A stretch of 41,679 nucleotides of DNA from a virus: positions 1-41,679 of the IMG/VR virus record IMGVR_UViG_3300045988_173913; one strand, given 5' to 3'. Position numbers and translations under genes: made by a program. A model generated the notes under the pieces. The model was not told where the DNA came from and made no database searches. It saw only the letters and a list, made by a program, of their open reading frames with translations. Each line of letters starts with the position of its first letter. Positions within the stretch are counted from its first letter, which is position 1. This document shows, piece by piece, positions 1-41,679 of the stretch.

Positions 1-60
1 AAAAGCACGGGCAAGGATTAAATAAAAGCACGGGCAAGGATTAAATAAAAGCACGGGCAA
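1..60. repeat. Tandem 23-bp repeat (aaaagcacgggcaaggattaaat), 2.6 copies, continuous with the array at the right end of the window
   Basis: Direct reading: the unit repeats at 1-23 and 24-46, with a partial copy at 47-60. The first 15 nt equal the last 15 nt of the window. Confidence 0.9.
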
Positions 61-192
61 GCCGTTTTCGGCGGCTTGTCTGTGCTGGAAAGCCGTCGGA
101 TGTTTCTTGCCTTTCTTGGCAATACGAAAATTTAACAGACGCCGAAAACACGGCGGAAGGGTATTCCAGGAATTATACAAAGATTTAAAAGC

Positions 193-7178: not shown

Positions 7179-7394
7179 ATGCTAACATTCACAATAAACG
7201 ATAAACAAGGCGTTGAGCTAACATTTGACGGCGAGGACAAAAGGCTTGCCGAGCTTAACGCAGGGAACGGCGCAACAGCGCAAGACGTAGCTCTTGGCGC
7301 GGCAGTAGTGCAGGCGTTAAAACTAATGAACTATAAGCCGCGAATGGAGCTTGTTAATAATTTGATTAGAGCAAAAGAAAGAAAGGATAAGTAA
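7179..7394 (+). CDS. Hypothetical protein (start set at the internal ATG with an AAAGGA RBS)
   Basis: The track ORF is 7149-7394. The ATG at 7179 has better RBS spacing. Confidence 0.35.
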   Translation: MLTFTINDKQGVELTFDGEDKRLAELNAGNGATAQDVALGAAVVQALKLMNYKPRMELVNNLIRAKERKDK

Positions 7395-7687
7395 TGAATA
7401 ACGATATAAAACTAAAACCGTGCCCATTTTGCGGGCAAATACCAGAACTAATGGGCGAAGAAACTGACGAGCCTATCAGCGTACATTGCAATCAATGCGA
7501 CTATGACATTGGCTATTTTGATACGGTGGAAGAAGCCGCAGAGGCTTGGAATACGAGGAAGGAAGAAACCTTCACAAAAGATGAAGCGGATTGGATTCTA
7601 AACCTTCTTGTGTCGGAGTATACGAACACACCTCAATGTAAATCTATTATTGCAAAGTGCGAAAGAATTTTGGGAACAAAGGATTAA
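7394..7687 (+). CDS. Lar-family restriction-alleviation protein
   Basis: KPCPFCG ... CNQCDY ... EAWNTR matches the conserved Zn-ribbon and AWN(T/R)R signature of the Lar family. Confidence 0.55.
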   Translation: MNNDIKLKPCPFCGQIPELMGEETDEPISVHCNQCDYDIGYFDTVEEAAEAWNTRKEETFTKDEADWILNLLVSEYTNTPQCKSIIAKCERILGTKD

Positions 7688-7940: not shown

Positions 7941-8426
7941 ATGGAAGAAGTGACCGTAAAAAATTATCAAGAATTGGCAATGCGGACGTGCTTGCCGAGC
8001 GCGAAAAACTGGCAGTATTGCTACTGCCTTATAGCTTCCGAAATAGGAGAGGCGTTCGGGAAGTGGGGCAAGAAATTCCGCGACGGAGAGTTTGACAAAG
8101 ACAAGCTGACCGACGAGCTTGGAGACGTATTCTGGGGAATCGCGTTGGCGTGTGAATTGGGCGGGCACAGTTTTGAGGAATTATGGGAAAAAGAAGAAAG
8201 TTGGGGATTTCATTGTGCAAGCATCCAAATAGATTATCATCTTCCCAATATTTATAGAGAATGGATGTACTATGGAATGAAAAAAAATATCGAAATTTTA
8301 AGCTTCATCAAAACCTTCGCGGAGGAATGCGGTATTGACCCGCTCGACTGCTTACGGCGCAACATTGCAAAGCTCGCAGGGCGCAAGGAACGCGGAACTA
8401 TTGGAGGAAATGGAGACGAAAGATGA
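7941..8426 (+). CDS. MazG-like nucleoside triphosphate pyrophosphohydrolase
   Basis: EIGEAFGK...ELGDVFW matches the EExxE/ELGD metal-binding helices of the MazG/all-alpha NTP-PPase fold. Confidence 0.6.
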   Translation: MEEVTVKNYQELAMRTCLPSAKNWQYCYCLIASEIGEAFGKWGKKFRDGEFDKDKLTDELGDVFWGIALACELGGHSFEELWEKEESWGFHCASIQIDYHLPNIYREWMYYGMKKNIEILSFIKTFAEECGIDPLDCLRRNIAKLAGRKERGTIGGNGDER

Positions 8427-8749
8427 AAACTTCCACAAAGAATAATTCAATGCTCAACAGGCTTGGGCTAACGAAAGCCGATATTAAGGAGGCTTTAAAG
8501 TTTAAACCCAAACCGAAACCTAAGATTCAACGCAGAGGCTCTGTATCGCCCGCAAAAACGCCTTGCAAGTGCGGAGGCACAGGAATGCTTCAACAATGGA
8601 TTGAAAGCGATTCTAAGGGCAATTCCAAGCTCTACGCAATGGTGTTTTGCCAAGATTGCGAGTGCAAGACTAAGATATATTCCGAGCGAACGCTAAACGA
8701 GTCGCGACAGGAAGCTTTAAACGAATGGAATATTAGAAACCGAAAATAA
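8423..8749 (+). CDS. Second Lar-like Zn-ribbon protein
   Basis: CKCGG ... CQDCEC ... ALNEWNIRNR parallels the Lar signature seen at 7394. Confidence 0.45.
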   Translation: MKTSTKNNSMLNRLGLTKADIKEALKFKPKPKPKIQRRGSVSPAKTPCKCGGTGMLQQWIESDSKGNSKLYAMVFCQDCECKTKIYSERTLNESRQEALNEWNIRNRK

Positions 8750-36234: not shown

Positions 36235-38121
36235 TTAAAATCCACCTCGACGGTTATACGCAACCTCCGCCGCTTGCGCTATCATATCTGCAATATCGTC
36301 ATGCTTCGCCTTCCCATCTTCTGTAAGCAATAATAACTCCTTCATTACTAATTGACTTACACGATGAGATGCGTTCTCAGGGAAAAGAATATTCCCACTC
36401 TCTATCATCGGCTTCATATCCATTACCCTCATCATCTTATCCCTACCCCTCGGCTTAAATCTCCTTACCGGTATCCCTCCAAGACGCCTTAAATCCTCTA
36501 TAAGCCTCATTCCACTCGCCGCATCTTCTATCCAAACACTCGTTATCCTCTGCCGATTCCCCACTCTACCATTCCACGTCCGATAAAATGTCATAAATTT
36601 CCTAACCAACTCCTCACTCGATATTTTCCCATACAACAAGTCTATCAAATGCAATCGGTTAGTATCCATTGTCCTTCCCCACAACCCTATCGCTGTGTTG
36701 TCGGCTGTCTCACTTGAACGAAAAGCCGTATCAGAAGCCATAAATACCTCACGATACTGCGTCCCAGGCACATAATGGTAAAACTTAAACCACTCCGCTT
36801 TAAACATATTCCCATTGTACAATACTGGCTCTTGTTGCCTCTGAGCCGCAAATACCGCTGGATTCGCAAGTTGCTCCTTCAACAGCATCTCCACTGGAAA
36901 TTGGCTCTCCCAAAAACTCCTCGGCGGATTCACTGTATCATCTAACGCAGGTACTTTTATCACTTCAAAGTCATTCCTATACTTCTCCAATACATACCCC
37001 ACCAAATCATCTACCGCAACCCTCTGCATTATTATGATTATTGGCGTCTTTGTCGGATTATTTAGTCGCTTGCTAAATACTGTCTCATACGATTCCTTTA
37101 CTATTCGCTTCTTGGTTTCCGAATTGAAAAATAATGGATTTAAGGCGTCGTCGATTACTACACAGCCTCCCCATTCGTCTCCGTGAACCCCGCAATTATG
37201 TACAAGAATTTTACTGTGAGTTATAAAAAAGTTATTAACATTCTTTACGGAAAGGCAATAACTTGGTTTATTATGAATATTAACAATGCTTTTTATGCGC
37301 CTATACCCCATTTTGAAGGGTATTCTATCATTACACGAATTAGAGCCGAGGTTAGACGAAAGAAGCTCTCCAACTTGTAGCTCATATCCCCTTTTTAAAC
37401 CTTCTGATGTGTAAAAAATATGGTCGGTAGTGGCTTCAATTACCTCTCCTCCTTCTATCTCTATTCTTAAATATTTATCTTCCTTATTATACACATAATC
37501 AACAACTTCTGATAATACCCTTTCCCCGCTTTCTTTCATTCCCCATACTTTTAATCCACTGGGTTTATCTTCGACTAATTTTCCTATCTTCTCAAATCCA
37601 TTCTCACACTCCACTAATGTATCATAATCAAAACAACCAAAACTCGTAATAGCACTCTCTATTGGCGCACTCCTAAATCCTCCCTTCGCAGCTGTCTCCC
37701 ACAACTCCTTCGCTTGCGTCGTACTACTCAACTTCACCCCAAACATCTTCTGCCATACAGGGTGTCTCATTATCGCCAATATGTCATCGCTCGTCCGATT
37801 ACATACCTGCTCCTGATAACTCGTAAATATAAAATTGCTCTTAGGATTGTGTATGAACCCCCAAGTTATGAAAAATTGCATTATTACGCTCTTCCCACTC
37901 CTCGGACTCATGCTTATTACCAAATTCTTCTTCTTGTTCGTCCCAAATACATACGACTCCAATGCCTCGCATATCTTCTTGTGAAAAGGCAAAAATGTAA
38001 AATCTGTCCCATACAACAACCGAAAAAAGAATATCAAATATAAGCTAAAATCACTCCTCAACGCCGTCGCTGTCGATTGTATGTTGGCAGGGTCTAACAA
38101 TTTCTCAAAGTCTATTTTCAT
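36235..38121 (-). CDS. terL: Terminase large subunit containing a mini-intein
   Basis: Walker A is MSPRSGKSVIM, with an ATPase N-domain and a nuclease C-domain. The intein blocks are CFDYDTLV (A), TTDHIF (B) and LVHN/C (G). Confidence 0.75.
   Translation of the reverse strand: MKIDFEKLLDPANIQSTATALRSDFSLYLIFFFRLLYGTDFTFLPFHKKICEALESYVFGTNKKKNLVISMSPRSGKSVIMQFFITWGFIHNPKSNFIFTSYQEQVCNRTSDDILAIMRHPVWQKMFGVKLSSTTQAKELWETAAKGGFRSAPIESAITSFGCFDYDTLVECENGFEKIGKLVEDKPSGLKVWGMKESGERVLSEVVDYVYNKEDKYLRIEIEGGEVIEATTDHIFYTSEGLKRGYELQVGELLSSNLGSNSCNDRIPFKMGYRRIKSIVNIHNKPSYCLSVKNVNNFFITHSKILVHNCGVHGDEWGGCVVIDDALNPLFFNSETKKRIVKESYETVFSKRLNNPTKTPIIIIMQRVAVDDLVGYVLEKYRNDFEVIKVPALDDTVNPPRSFWESQFPVEMLLKEQLANPAVFAAQRQQEPVLYNGNMFKAEWFKFYHYVPGTQYREVFMASDTAFRSSETADNTAIGLWGRTMDTNRLHLIDLLYGKISSEELVRKFMTFYRTWNGRVGNRQRITSVWIEDAASGMRLIEDLRRLGGIPVRRFKPRGRDKMMRVMDMKPMIESGNILFPENASHRVSQLVMKELLLLTEDGKAKHDDIADMIAQAAEVAYNRRGGF
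37195..37635 (-). mobile_element. Mini-intein (147 aa, residues 163-309 of TerL; no homing-endonuclease domain)
   Basis: Begins with Cys (CFDYDTLV), has the internal TxxH block (EATTDHIF), and ends ...ILVHN followed by a +1 Cys. The coding-region composition differs from the flanking extein. Confidence 0.7.
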
Positions 38122-39770: not shown

Positions 39771-39910
39771 AGAAAAAAGTCTTTCGCAGCCCTACTTTCT
39801 GCAGCTTGTGAATTTTCGGGAAATTTTTTGGGAAAGTACAAATGGATTTTTGTCGTCGAAAAAAAACGAAACGAAAAAAAAAGAAAAAGAGAAAAAAAAA
39901 AGAAAGAAAG

Positions 39911-39939
39911 AAAAAAAACGCCTTTACGCAAGTAAAGGC
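39911..39939 (-). terminator. Rho-independent terminator for leftward transcription
   Basis: Stem gccttta/taaaggc with loop cgcaag, followed on the minus strand by a U9 run. Confidence 0.45.
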
Positions 39940-40043
39940 TAAAAAAAAAGAAAGCCCTTGAAAAAAAAAAGAGAAAAGAAAAAAAATCCGCGCGCGGAAC
40001 AATTTTTGGGGGGGCGCGAAAAGTTAGATGGGTGTAACAAGCC

Positions 40044-40180
40044 GAAAGCGAGCGGCGCAAAAAAATATAATAAAATTGCTTGACAATTTTAAAAAAAGAG
40101 TCTGCGAAAAGGAAAGCGAGCGGCGCAAAAAAAATATAAAAAATTGCTTGACAATTTTAAAAAAAGAGTCTTGCGAAAAG
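40044..40180. repeat. Tandem duplication of a 68-bp unit; each copy carries a TTGACA box
   Basis: The unit gaaagcgagcggcgcaaaaaaatataa(t/a)aaaattgcttgacaattttaaaaaaagagtct(t)gcgaaaag occurs at 40044-40111 and again at 40112-40180. Confidence 0.8.
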
Positions 40181-40311
40181 CGGCTAACTTTTTTTGAGGC
40201 GGGAAGGGAAAAGCGCAAAAAAAAGATAAAAATATATAAAAAATTTAAGGGCGTTGCGCAAGTGGTTGAAAATGAAGGAAATAAAATTTTAAAAAAAATA
40301 TAAAAAAAATG

Positions 40312-40340
40312 TTGACATTGAAAAAGAAAAGTGTGATTAT
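40312..40340 (+). promoter_or_regulatory. Sigma70-like promoter TTGACA-17-TGTGATTAT (extended -10)
   Basis: TTGACA is at 40312-40317. A 17-nt spacer leads to TGn + GATTAT at 40332-40340. It points into the GC-rich segment 40345-40700. Confidence 0.45.
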
Positions 40341-40743
40341 GCGTGCATGAAAAATGAAGATTACGCTGCAAGGAGACGCCCGGGGGATAATATCGCGATA
40401 TTGTCCCGCGCCGGGGAAGTATTTTTTTGCAAAAATCTCAACGGGGTTTGCGCATTTGCGACCAAAAACAGAGCCGCGGAACAATATCGTTTTTACGCGA
40501 CGGAGGGCGGATTGTTGTTTTGCGCGGTGCAAATCTTTGTTGCAAGCAAAGAGTCCGTTAGCGTTGACACGCGTGCAGGGGGTTTTTGCTTTTTGACAAA
40601 AAGCAAAGATGACACTCTTCGTCTCCCGACACACGCGGAACTCCGAGAGGTCTTTGCTTTTGTCGGCTGGCAACGCGAATATCACTTTTATGCGCAAATA
40701 GATTCCTATTTTGCATAATCAACACATGGAAAGGTAAAAAAAA

Positions 40744-41004
40744 ATGAAGGTAAACGCAAAAAATTATGATAAGGCGCTAAAGCGTCTTTGCTTTAACGAC
40801 ATAAACGCGGCACTGCGCCTGTCTCGAAAAGTCACGGCTAATCCGGGCGCCGAATATGTCAAAGATTACGGCTATATTGCGCGCGGCGACGCGTGGATGG
40901 ACAACAACGGATTGCGCGGCCGCTATTATTACGGCAAGCGAGGGGATCTCATCGAGTTTGATCTAACGGATGCCGACCAATGTCAAATTTTAGGGTGGAT
41001 TTAA
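40744..41004 (+). CDS. Hypothetical small protein whose stop lies inside the R element, directly abutting the CRISPR array
   Basis: 86 aa. Its 26-nt 5' region, including ATGAAG, is identical to that of ORF 41227. Confidence 0.35.
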   Translation: MKVNAKNYDKALKRLCFNDINAALRLSRKVTANPGAEYVKDYGYIARGDAWMDNNGLRGRYYYGKRGDLIEFDLTDADQCQILGWI

Positions 41005-41010
41005 ACACGG

Positions 41011-41174
41011 GTTTCAATCCACGCGCCCCCCGCGGGGGGCGCGACCCGCAAATAGATTCCTATTTTGCATAATTTTATTGTTTCAATCCACGCGCCCGCG
41101 GGGGCGCGACGTTTGCGCTTTTGCGAATAAAAACAAGGGGGCGGTTTCAATCCACGCGCCCGCGGGGGCGCGAC
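41011..41174 (-). CRISPR. Orphan mini-CRISPR array with a type I-C-like repeat (3 repeats, 2 spacers; minus-strand repeat GTCGCGCCCGCGGGGGCGCGTGGATTGAAAC)
   Basis: Repeats lie at 41011-41045 (35 bp, with homopolymer-expanded C6/G6), 41080-41110 and 41144-41174 (identical, 31 bp). Spacers lie at 41046-41079 (34 nt) and 41111-41143 (33 nt). The repeat's reverse complement ends GCGTGGATTGAAAC, as in type I-C repeats. Confidence 0.8.
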
Positions 41175-41226
41175 AATATCAAATTTTAGGGTGGATTTAA
41201 ACACAAACATGGAAAGGTAAAAAAAA

Positions 41227-41574
41227 ATGAAGATCAAATTAACAAGAAATGATTTAAGGAACAATTTTGGCGTTATTGTAAGCTGCGGATGTTGCGAATT
41301 GCAATCCCTTCTAAGCATAAAAAACCGCGTCGGATATAACAAGGGCGTTTGCGGCTGGAATTTTGATATTTTCGATTTTGGCGGCGTCGGCTTAATTACG
41401 GGATACCGCACACGCGGCGCGGATATTAAACTTTCACGGGAATTTTGCACGCGCTGGAACGACCGCGCAAGCAATGCAACTTATGAGGGAAGAAAGCAAA
41501 TTCTTAATGAATTTGAAAGGGAATTGCAAAGACTTGCACGGGAATTTGTAGAAATTAAGATTAAAAGCAAATAA
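41227..41574 (+). CDS. Hypothetical Cys-rich small protein downstream of the array; it carries two GCACGGGAAT motifs
   Basis: 115 aa. Shares its 5' region with ORF 40744. Contains SCGCCELQ and CGWNFD cysteines. Confidence 0.4.
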   Translation: MKIKLTRNDLRNNFGVIVSCGCCELQSLLSIKNRVGYNKGVCGWNFDIFDFGGVGLITGYRTRGADIKLSREFCTRWNDRASNATYEGRKQILNEFERELQRLAREFVEIKIKSK

Positions 41575-41679
41575 AAGCACGGGCAAGGATTAAAGAAAAG
41601 CACGGGCAAGGATTAAAGAAAAGCACGGGCAAGGATTAAATAAAAGCACGGGCAAGGATTAAATAAAAGCACGGGCAAG
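41573..41679. repeat. Tandem 23-bp repeat, 4.6 copies in two variants (...attaaag x2, ...attaaat x2, then a partial copy), continuous with 1-60
   Basis: Direct reading: the last 15 nt equal the first 15 nt of the window. Confidence 0.9.

Follow-up and report, generated by a model that had tools for sequence, protein, structure and literature searches.

An orphan type I-C CRISPR mini-array in a myovirus genome, with spacers that appear to derive from a divergent allele of a phage early gene

Why would a phage genome in which no cas gene is recognised carry a small CRISPR array of its own, and against what would such an array be directed? We address this question for IMG/VR record IMGVR_UViG_3300045988_173913, analysed as one stretch of 41,679 nucleotides that we refer to as the window. 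The window is a complete tailed phage (myovirus) of 41.7 kb. The minus strand carries genes for the large and small terminase, portal, head protease, major capsid and tail sheath, and the plus strand encodes a DnaB helicase, RusA, a DUF2800/PD-(D/E)XK nuclease, a cell-wall hydrolase and two Lar-like genes. A 23-nt tandem repeat spans the window ends and another contig reads through that junction, making the genome circularly complete, as the initial annotation had presumed on seeing the sequence alone. Its statement that the phage has no cas genes holds for the approximately 40 ORFs scanned, which comprised most of the larger plus-strand ORFs, the main structural genes and only a minority of the minus-strand tail-module ORFs. 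Two features that had been placed beside the array lie at some distance from it. The Lar-like genes (7394-7687 and 8423-8749), cited as adjoining anti-restriction genes, are about 8 kb away, and the nuclease that had been called Cas4-like (1319-2440) lies some 2 kb off on the other side of the circular junction, with no match among NCBIfam Cas4 models. GenBank phages show no similarity to the array locus or to the structural module. Because the portal homologues are just ~30% identical, no host can be inferred from the portal.

The array consists of three repeats separated by spacers of 34 and 33 nt, as originally described (Table 1). Repeats R2 and R3 are identical 31-mers, GTTTCAATCCACGCGCCCGCGGGGGCGCGAC on the plus strand, for which the expected number of chance matches is 0.00 with three mismatches allowed. 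The minus-strand repeat, taken as the true reverse complement, is GTCGCGCCCCCGCGGGCGCGTGGATTGAAAC; the string first given for this strand had been mis-transcribed. The repeat is 74% GC compared with ~41% for the genome, so the reported excess over the genome stands. The distal copy, R1', had been described as a C/G homopolymer expansion, and it does contain added C and G residues in its core, with both stem arms longer and a stem of 9 bp versus 7 bp. Its ends are kept, with 5' GUCGCG and the 3' handle intact, and a lengthened stem between intact ends marks the changes in R1' as compensatory. A region of 271 nt that covers the array is base-for-base the same in four other metagenome assemblies (five copies in all), and the homopolymer variant is therefore real and no assembly error. 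All five copies of the array are invariant, at a strain divergence too low for either turnover or purifying selection to show. We are almost certain that the locus is a real, CRISPR-derived type I-C mini-array.

Table 1. Features of the array locus and its surroundings (window coordinates)
Feature	Position	Strand	Description
Sigma-70-type early promoter	40312..40340	+	strong; TTGACA-17-GATTAT with upstream TG
ORF123	40347..40718	+	first early gene; 123 aa, 372 nt; gene family of both spacers
Own mismatched S2 protospacer copy	40446..40481	+	copy 40446-40478 plus GAA 40479-40481; GAA is the TTC PAM on the crRNA-sense strand
Own partial S1 protospacer copy	40693..40719	+	last 8 codons and stop of ORF123
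geneA	40744..41004	+	86 aa, no known family; next gene upstream of the array
D8L	40978..41008	+	left copy of 31-nt duplication; native geneA 3' end (…QILGWI*)
Repeat R1'	41011..41045	-	35-nt trailer-end variant
Spacer S1	41046..41079	-	34 nt; crRNA sense AATAAAATTATGCAAAATAGGAATCTATTTGCGG
Repeat R2	41080..41110	-	same as R3; 31-mer also in I-C arrays of L001 and L003
Spacer S2	41111..41143	-	33 nt; crRNA sense CGCCCCCTTGTTTTTATTCGCAAAAGCGCAAAC
Repeat R3	41144..41174	-	exact 31-mer; leader-proximal in crRNA sense
D8R	41174..41204	+	right copy of 31-nt duplication, 97% identical; between R3 and geneB ribosome-binding site
geneB	41227..41574	+	115 aa; early gene conserved across the phage group; next gene downstream of the array
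Best minus-strand promoter candidate	41275..41304	-	TTGCAA-18-TACAAT, 9/12, inside geneB; weak

The family of the repeat was established by considering where else it occurs. The exact 31-mer is found once each in three bacterial genomes from unrelated taxa of different GC, with flanks of 47-56% GC compared with 41% for the phage. In two of these genomes it is a one-base-shorter variant inside long arrays built from the 32-nt unit GTCGCGCCCCCCGCGGGCGCGTGGATTGAAAC, of which there are 22 copies in a Marinobacter litoralis array and 11 in the array of a Spirochaetia MAG. The phage repeat differs from the Marinobacter repeat by one deleted C, and with that C optional the array repeat can be written GTCGCGCCCCC(C)GCGGGCGCGTGGATTGAAAC. 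The Marinobacter litoralis array (NZ_QMDL01000001, L001) lies directly downstream of cas4-cas1c-cas2, and its cas1c scores 493 bits against TIGR03640, where the cut-off is 385. The repeat there reads GTCGCG...GAAAC on the cas strand, and the exact 31-mer is the last unit of the array.

Folding supports the same orientation. ViennaRNA folds the minus-strand repeat as ..(((((((....)))))))..........., which in R3 gives 2 nt, a 7-bp stem, a 4-nt loop and an 11-nt tail. A Cas5c substrate has a 2-nt 5' overhang, a 7-bp stem, a 4-5-nt loop and an 11-nt 3' tail of the form UGG...AUUGAAAC (PMC8524198). The 11-nt tail of the minus-strand repeat, UGG...GAAAC, reproduces this layout, and in plus-strand RNA the layout is reversed. 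Repeat and spacer lengths likewise agree with the I-C pattern (repeats of ~32 nt, spacers of 33-35 nt). Rfam gives no match anywhere in the window at gathering thresholds. Below threshold, CRISPR-DR9 is detected on the minus strand only, at 21.8 bits for R3 and 24.8 bits for R1' against a gathering score of 45; these low scores say little because members of the DR9 family are 37 nt long and have a longer stem. Judged by their sequence and predicted fold, the repeats are shown to belong to a bona fide I-C family oriented on the minus strand. The initial annotation had proposed both the type and the orientation, and the cas-adjacent Marinobacter array and the Cas5c substrate layout bear it out; comparison with bacterial genomes confirmed I-C through the Marinobacter litoralis and Spirochaetia arrays. 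We also considered the repeats as intrinsic terminators and rejected this, as neither strand shows a T-run after them and no terminator is predicted. Two candidate degenerate repeats, at 40879-40901 inside geneA and in a palindrome at ~39986-40025, were discarded as native sequence kept in array-less relatives.

The spacers had been called unique. Both have counterparts in the phage's own genome that were missed at first reading. Within S1, positions 41047-41073 equal 40693-40719 at all 27 of 27 positions, and S2 matches 40446-40478 at 26/33, the next-best site in the genome scoring 20. When spacers were shuffled, 0 of 1000 reached the observed score of S1 or of S2. The two sites lie on the same strand of ORF123, within 280 nt of each other and 300-650 nt upstream of the array. 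S1 spans the last 8 codons of ORF123, the stop and 7 nt beyond, and differs from the own-genome site in the PAM-proximal 6-7 nt and in the base at the far end. S2 is in frame with ORF123 and encodes VCAFANKNKGA where the phage's own protein has VCAFATKNRAA, one of the changes being synonymous. An exhaustive HMMER search recovered ORF123 homologues at 54% and 34% identity. In related ~43.5-kb phages of like architecture, the 54% homologue (L024) takes the place of first early gene, and because it reads ICAFANEKDAT at this segment, S2 represents a third allele of the family. ORF123 is absent from L015, the closest array-less relative.

The PAM of type I-C is TTC (10.1101/2022.06.15.496202; PMC8406640), which reads GAA on the opposite strand. 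GAA follows the S2 site in L024 as well as in the phage's own copy, and it also follows the S1-equivalent site in L024. The PAM is thus seen at homologous sites, the true source sequence of the spacers not being among those found. Taken together, the frame, strand and scores of the matches show, at the level of sequence, that both spacers derive from one strand of a divergent, unsampled allele of ORF123. The spacers would thus look like products of I-C adaptation, taken from the first early gene of a relative and oriented as the repeats predict. The carrier itself is, as read from its sequence, a poor target of its own array. The seven S2 mismatches, read from sequence, fall at spacer positions 4, 5, 7, 8, 16, 17 and 25, with four of the seven in the 8-nt seed. 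At the own S1 site the seed-side flank differs and ATG stands at the GAA position, leaving no PAM, so that for S1 both seed and PAM are absent.

A perfect protospacer for S1 or S2 was found in none of the JGI metagenome contigs, IMG/VR, GenBank phages or related loci fetched. Neither S1 nor the S2 core is present in JGI metagenome contigs or IMG/VR, collections whose coverage of this phage group is poor, since the window itself is absent from both. Against GenBank phages the spacers gave chance-level matches only, and the matches to related phages that the initial annotation had expected from such a search did not appear. A gapped 23/24 match of S2 in a Helicobacter cinaedi prophage was set aside, being intergenic, in an unrelated context and with the wrong PAM. 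The 27-nt copy inside S1 was also considered as a plus-strand promoter and rejected: a usable -35 is missing, and the copy corresponds to nothing more than the 3' end of ORF123. Sequence tags for the putative target allele of ORF123 would be CCGCAAATAGATTCCTATTTTGCATAATTTTATTGAA and GTTTGCGCTTTTGCGAATAAAAACAAGGGGGCGGAA, and its protein would contain VCAFANKNKGA and end in PQIDSYFA*.

ORF123 also stands out in how it varies. Compared with the window, four further contigs of this phage show 6-9 substitutions per ~1.2 kb. Almost every one lies in ORF123 or its promoter (40319-40622), and synonymous and non-synonymous changes are mixed. The 5956 nt downstream hold only two differences among strains. 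In one strain, L004, 5 of the 8 differences over 7.1 kb fall within the 372 nt of ORF123. On these sequence comparisons ORF123 is a local SNP hotspot, as expected under targeting pressure or an arms race.

Relatives of the phage show where the array entered. In L015 and three further relatives with geneA, that gene terminates in ...CAATATCAAATTTTAGGnTGGATTTAA, and the next gene begins no more than ~25-40 nt later. No I-C repeat occurs in any related locus examined, including relatives with both geneA and geneB, and the array is for that reason a lineage-specific insertion between two early genes. The segment duplicated as D8L and D8R (Table 1) is also the geneA end in the array-less L015, L020, L021 and L022. 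It terminates in GTGGATTTAAAC, which agrees with the I-C handle at 11/12 positions but in inverted orientation, and a CGAC microhomology lies at the R3 junction. In addition, a 26-nt ribosome-binding-site/start module of geneA has been copied in front of geneB, which starts MK here compared with MN in 33 of 33 aligned relatives. As read from the sequence, such scars suggest that the array came from a host array by template switching or illegitimate recombination. Recombination with host arrays is the proposed route by which phage mini-arrays, without host-like leaders, arise (PMC7099407, PMC6858448). The flanking proteins themselves are unfamiliar: searches of ORF123, geneA and geneB against Pfam, PHROGs, NCBIfam and PDB sequences gave no match, and none of the three could be identified as an Acr. 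geneB has 73 homologue clusters, and its AlphaFold (AF2) model (pLDDT 84.8) has no significant PDB fold match. IMG/VR holds no relatives of geneA or geneB.

Whether the array is expressed in the orientation of its repeats is less obvious. The early promoter precedes ORF123-geneA-(array)-geneB and is conserved in L015 and L016. Because this promoter is strong and all neighbouring genes are on the plus strand, the array lies antisense within an early operon. Minus-strand promoter candidates within 250 bp upstream of the repeats match at 9/12 or less; besides the best one (Table 1) there is a second weak candidate, TTTAAA-17-TATTGT, at 41201->41173. The sequence upstream of R3 has no similarity to the single I-C leader compared, that of Marinobacter. 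With no cas gene in the scanned ORFs, no leader similarity and weak promoter candidates only, the array is an orphan. A modelled minus-strand transcript retains all three repeat hairpins. As judged from sequence complementarity, base-pairing between the R3 handle and the inverted handle-like 12 nt of the duplicated flank could interfere with S2 crRNA processing.

What, then, might the array do? We consider its likeliest function to be the exclusion of relatives with a matching ORF123 allele through the host's Cascade-Cas3, a reading to which we give about an even chance of being correct. The array would have been captured from a host I-C array, or built by the host Cas1-Cas2-Cas4. Its minus strand would be transcribed, and host Cas5c would cut at the 3' base of each hairpin. 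The products would be crRNAs of ~64 and ~69 nt, each with an 11-nt UGGAUUGAAAC handle, spacer and hairpin, R3 supplying the 5' handle of the S2 crRNA. Loaded into host Cascade (Cas5c, Cas7c, Cas8c), these crRNAs would recruit Cas3, and co-infecting or superinfecting relatives with a matching ORF123 allele would be destroyed. The carrier would be spared through its seed and PAM mismatches, amounting to heterotypic superinfection exclusion. The initial annotation had already invoked interviral conflict, and this gains support from the apparent origin of both spacers in a divergent ORF123 allele, with the TTC PAM placed as expected. Against exclusion are the antisense position in a strongly promoted operon, the weak minus-strand promoters and the lack of leader similarity, and also that no perfect target sequence was found in the collections searched, of which the JGI contigs and IMG/VR cover the group poorly. 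The GC gap between the phage and the flanks of the repeat in bacterial genomes, the possible pairing with the R3 handle and the invariance of all five copies likewise weigh against it.

These same features have led us to weigh other explanations. The array could flood the host I-C Cas proteins with harmless crRNAs as an RNA decoy, whether Racr-like or by competition, so that the phage evades host spacers and the spacer matches are incidental. There is precedent, in that a non-targeting crRNA and a solitary repeat both reduce interference and an I-C Racr has been validated beside acrIC5 (Camara-Wilpert et al. 2023, PMC10651486). A place among the first early genes is typical of anti-defence loci, both spacers are disabled against the phage's own genome, and 70 of 90 IMG/VR viral contigs with the I-C repeat half carry it as a single copy. 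However, three complete repeats and two full-length spacers would yield ordinary crRNAs and not aberrant complexes, the proteins encoded alongside resemble neither a known Acr nor any other family, and RacrIC1 is co-oriented with its operon while the array here is antisense. Nor does a decoy explain why both spacers trace non-randomly to a single gene of relatives. We regard it as possible but rather unlikely. We are similarly doubtful that the array is an inert passenger, a fragment of a host I-C array with spacers against this lineage that was recently captured by illegitimate recombination or template switching and has no current function. Its confinement to one lineage, the insertion scar formed by the 31-nt duplication bracket and the CGAC microhomology at one junction, the antisense position in the operon and the want of a convincing promoter or leader would all fit a passenger, as would the identity of all copies, by which the array may be very young, and the thought that phage mini-arrays arise via host-array recombination (PMC7099407, PMC6858448). 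Yet R2 and R3 are still perfect, R1' has kept its handle with compensatory stem changes, and it is rare for a small phage genome to retain ~200 nt without use in a compact early operon. That the S2 allele is 7/33 off the phage's own gene moreover argues for a distinct relative rather than simple escape by the carrier.

Two further possibilities turn on what the RNA would pair with. If only the plus strand were transcribed, three segments of 31-35 nt, perfectly complementary to host I-C repeats, would act as antisense anti-repeat RNA, pairing with host pre-crRNA or crRNA handles and blocking Cas5c processing or Cascade assembly. In its plus-strand sense the array does lie within an early transcript driven by a strong promoter, the minus-strand promoters are weak, and plus-strand RNA, having no Cas5c substrate layout, would persist unprocessed. 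On the other hand, we found no published precedent, the inverted orientation could be an accident, and PAM-consistent spacers only require a minus-orientation origin, which any capture could provide. We think it quite improbable; if true, it would be an antisense-RNA anti-CRISPR, a mechanism for which we found no published description. Nine two-spacer I-C Cracr arrays have been reported in viruses (10.1101/2024.10.29.618823), in which crRNA-like RNAs guide host Cascade to bind, without cutting, a cas promoter or the CreT toxin gene and so silence immunity. Here, both spacers map in frame to the phage protein-coding gene ORF123 and are full length, and the repeats are canonical instead of degenerate pseudo-repeats, which makes a Cracr-type array scarcely credible.

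The array can be compared with several described systems. Viral mini-arrays carry one or two spacers, no cas and repeats that match the host's (Faure et al. 2019, via PMC7099407 and PMC11656645; Medvedeva et al. 2019, PMC6858448). Their spacers target nearby loci of close relatives, and the carrier's own orthologous locus is mutated (PMC6858448; PMC7099407; PMC11656645). The present locus resembles the virus-borne mini-arrays of Faure et al. 2019 and of SPV1/SPV2 (PMC6858448) in combining a cas-less viral genome, two spacers and cellular-type repeats. It also shares with them spacers that match a near-array locus, similar but non-identical in the carrier, which would prevent self-targeting, and, with phage mini-arrays, the lack of a host-like leader. 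The portogloboviruses carry archaeal I-A/III repeats, whereas here the repeat is bacterial I-C and the carrier a myovirus. Unlike known viral mini-arrays, it runs antisense to its operon, between the two copies of a 31-nt duplication. Neither reciprocal targeting nor spacer turnover is documented here, and a matching rival was not found.

With RacrIC1 (PMC10651486) the locus shares an I-C-type repeat in a cas-less phage at an early, anti-defence-like position, and it could likewise compete for Cas5c and Cas7c. Solitary Racr repeats differ from its three repeats and two normal-length spacers, its orientation opposite to the flanking genes and its lack of a recognised acr neighbour. Viral Cracr arrays (Liu et al., 10.1101/2024.10.29.618823) are similarly multi-spacer, cas-less and borne by phages, with I-C two-spacer examples among them. 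Their pseudo-spacers, however, pair partially and PAM-proximally with host cas or creT promoters, at least nine PAM-proximal matches to such a promoter being the criterion, and the spacers here match phage coding sequence. The chromosomal I-C (Dvulg) array of Marinobacter litoralis has the same spacer lengths, hairpin and handle; the phage array, in contrast, has two spacers, no adjacent cas4-cas1-cas2 and no related leader, and lies in a phage of 41% GC. The exact 31-nt repeat has no match in IMG/VR. The I-C repeat half GGGCGCGTGGATTGAAAC, however, is present in 90 IMG/VR viral contigs, single-copy in most, with 2-4 copies in 11 and long arrays in the rest, which indicates that I-C repeat units are common in viruses. 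The novelty implied by the initial annotation was thus overstated, the class having been described in 2019. The locus joins a known class of virus-borne mini-arrays and reveals no new kind of system.

To our knowledge, the use of viral mini-arrays as inter-virus weapons has been tested experimentally in only one archaeal virus pair, and the evidence from bacteriophages is bioinformatic. The present locus is a clean bacterial I-C case, in which the carrier's copy is disabled in seed or PAM and the target gene is a variation hotspot among co-circulating strains. From the array-less sister phage and the duplication scar one can read the site at which the array entered and, in outline, the manner of its entry. 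The locus could therefore be used to test both the use of CRISPR by phage against phage and the capture of arrays by phages.

The array is bracketed by a direct duplication of the 3' end of geneA, the early gene on its left. At 31 nt, the duplicated segment is about as long as one CRISPR repeat, and at its end stands GTGGATTTAAAC, which nearly copies the type I-C handle (the 11-nt 3' tail of the repeat) in inverted orientation. The left copy (D8L) could pair with the handle of the adjoining repeat R1', with a 4-nt loop between them, and the right copy (D8R) could pair over a longer range with the handle of R3. Identical copies of a 26-nt module, comprising a ribosome-binding site and a start codon, lie upstream of geneA and of geneB, the early gene to the right of the array. 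The N-terminus of geneB reads MK in this phage, while each of the 33 relatives aligned has MN there; this difference indicates a recombination junction within the first two codons.

Positions of the features described here, in the phage genome unless another record is named
Feature	Position	Strand	Detail
Lar-type restriction-alleviation genes (two paralogues)	7394-7687, 8423-8749		Pfam PF14354, E = 4e-13 and 2e-6
Large terminase	36235-38121	minus	628 aa
Conserved upstream region	39857-40330
A-rich tract	39859-39918
68-nt tandem duplication	40044-40180		TTGACA in each copy
ORF123 and promoter, strain-variable segment	40319-40622		clusters at 40403-40409, 40444-40445, 40539-40552, 40614-40622
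26-nt module	40724-40749, 41207-41232		upstream of geneA, geneB
31-nt duplication	40978-41008, 41174-41204		D8L, D8R
23-nt tandem array	41569-41679 and 1-61		across window ends
Solitary I-C repeat, Methylotenera MAG	2068-2098 of JAURWJ010000039		exact 31 nt
Solitary I-C repeats, viral contig	372-389, 969-986 of IMGVR_UViG_3300031673_000079

Solitary copies of the I-C repeat were also found elsewhere. The copy in the Methylotenera MAG comes immediately after the last unit of an array in which another repeat type (GTAAGCCGCCGCACACGCGGCTTAGAAA, 60-nt period) occurs 34 times. The viral contig carries two, about 600 nt apart, one of which, in sense orientation, directly precedes the ribosome-binding site and start of a gene; the array studied here is arranged the other way round.

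Among five near-identical strains of the phage, nearly every difference falls within ORF123, the first early gene, and its promoter, where the changes are clustered and mix synonymous with non-synonymous. For one such strain (contig L004), five of the eight differences over 7.1 kb lie inside the 372-nt ORF123. The family, which includes proteins P0074, P0084 and P0085 with weak matches to P0086-P0088, had no match in Pfam or PDB. The C-terminal half of ORF123 (…TLRLPT.AEL…W.RE…) weakly matches, in multiple stretches, repeated domains of 883-1436-aa proteins, and these matches hint at a repeat-domain fold.

PHROG matches to the large terminase fall into two blocks, residues 22-162 and 382-621, separated by an insert of ~220 aa. 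Its homologues in the related phages L010 and L016, each 628 aa, have Intein_splicing/Hint Pfam matches, and the insert is missing from the terminases of relatives L021 and L023, which have 481 and 493 aa respectively. The phage terminase probably contains an intein. The Lar-type pair is located in the early region.

Upstream of the early promoter, the long A-rich tract is followed on its 3' side by the 68-nt duplication, and more TTGACA-bearing units lie between the duplication and the promoter. Conservation of the region extends to relatives L010, L012 and L016, and it may hold stacked early promoters or have a regulatory role. Between geneB and the cell-wall hydrolase gene, a 23-nt unit (AAAAGCACGGGCAAGGATTAAAT) is repeated in tandem. 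Its copies differ from one another by single-base variants and number about 6-7 in this genome, a count that is uncertain at the assembly junction, versus five in L004. These units could be iterons, mark an origin or form an array to which a protein binds.
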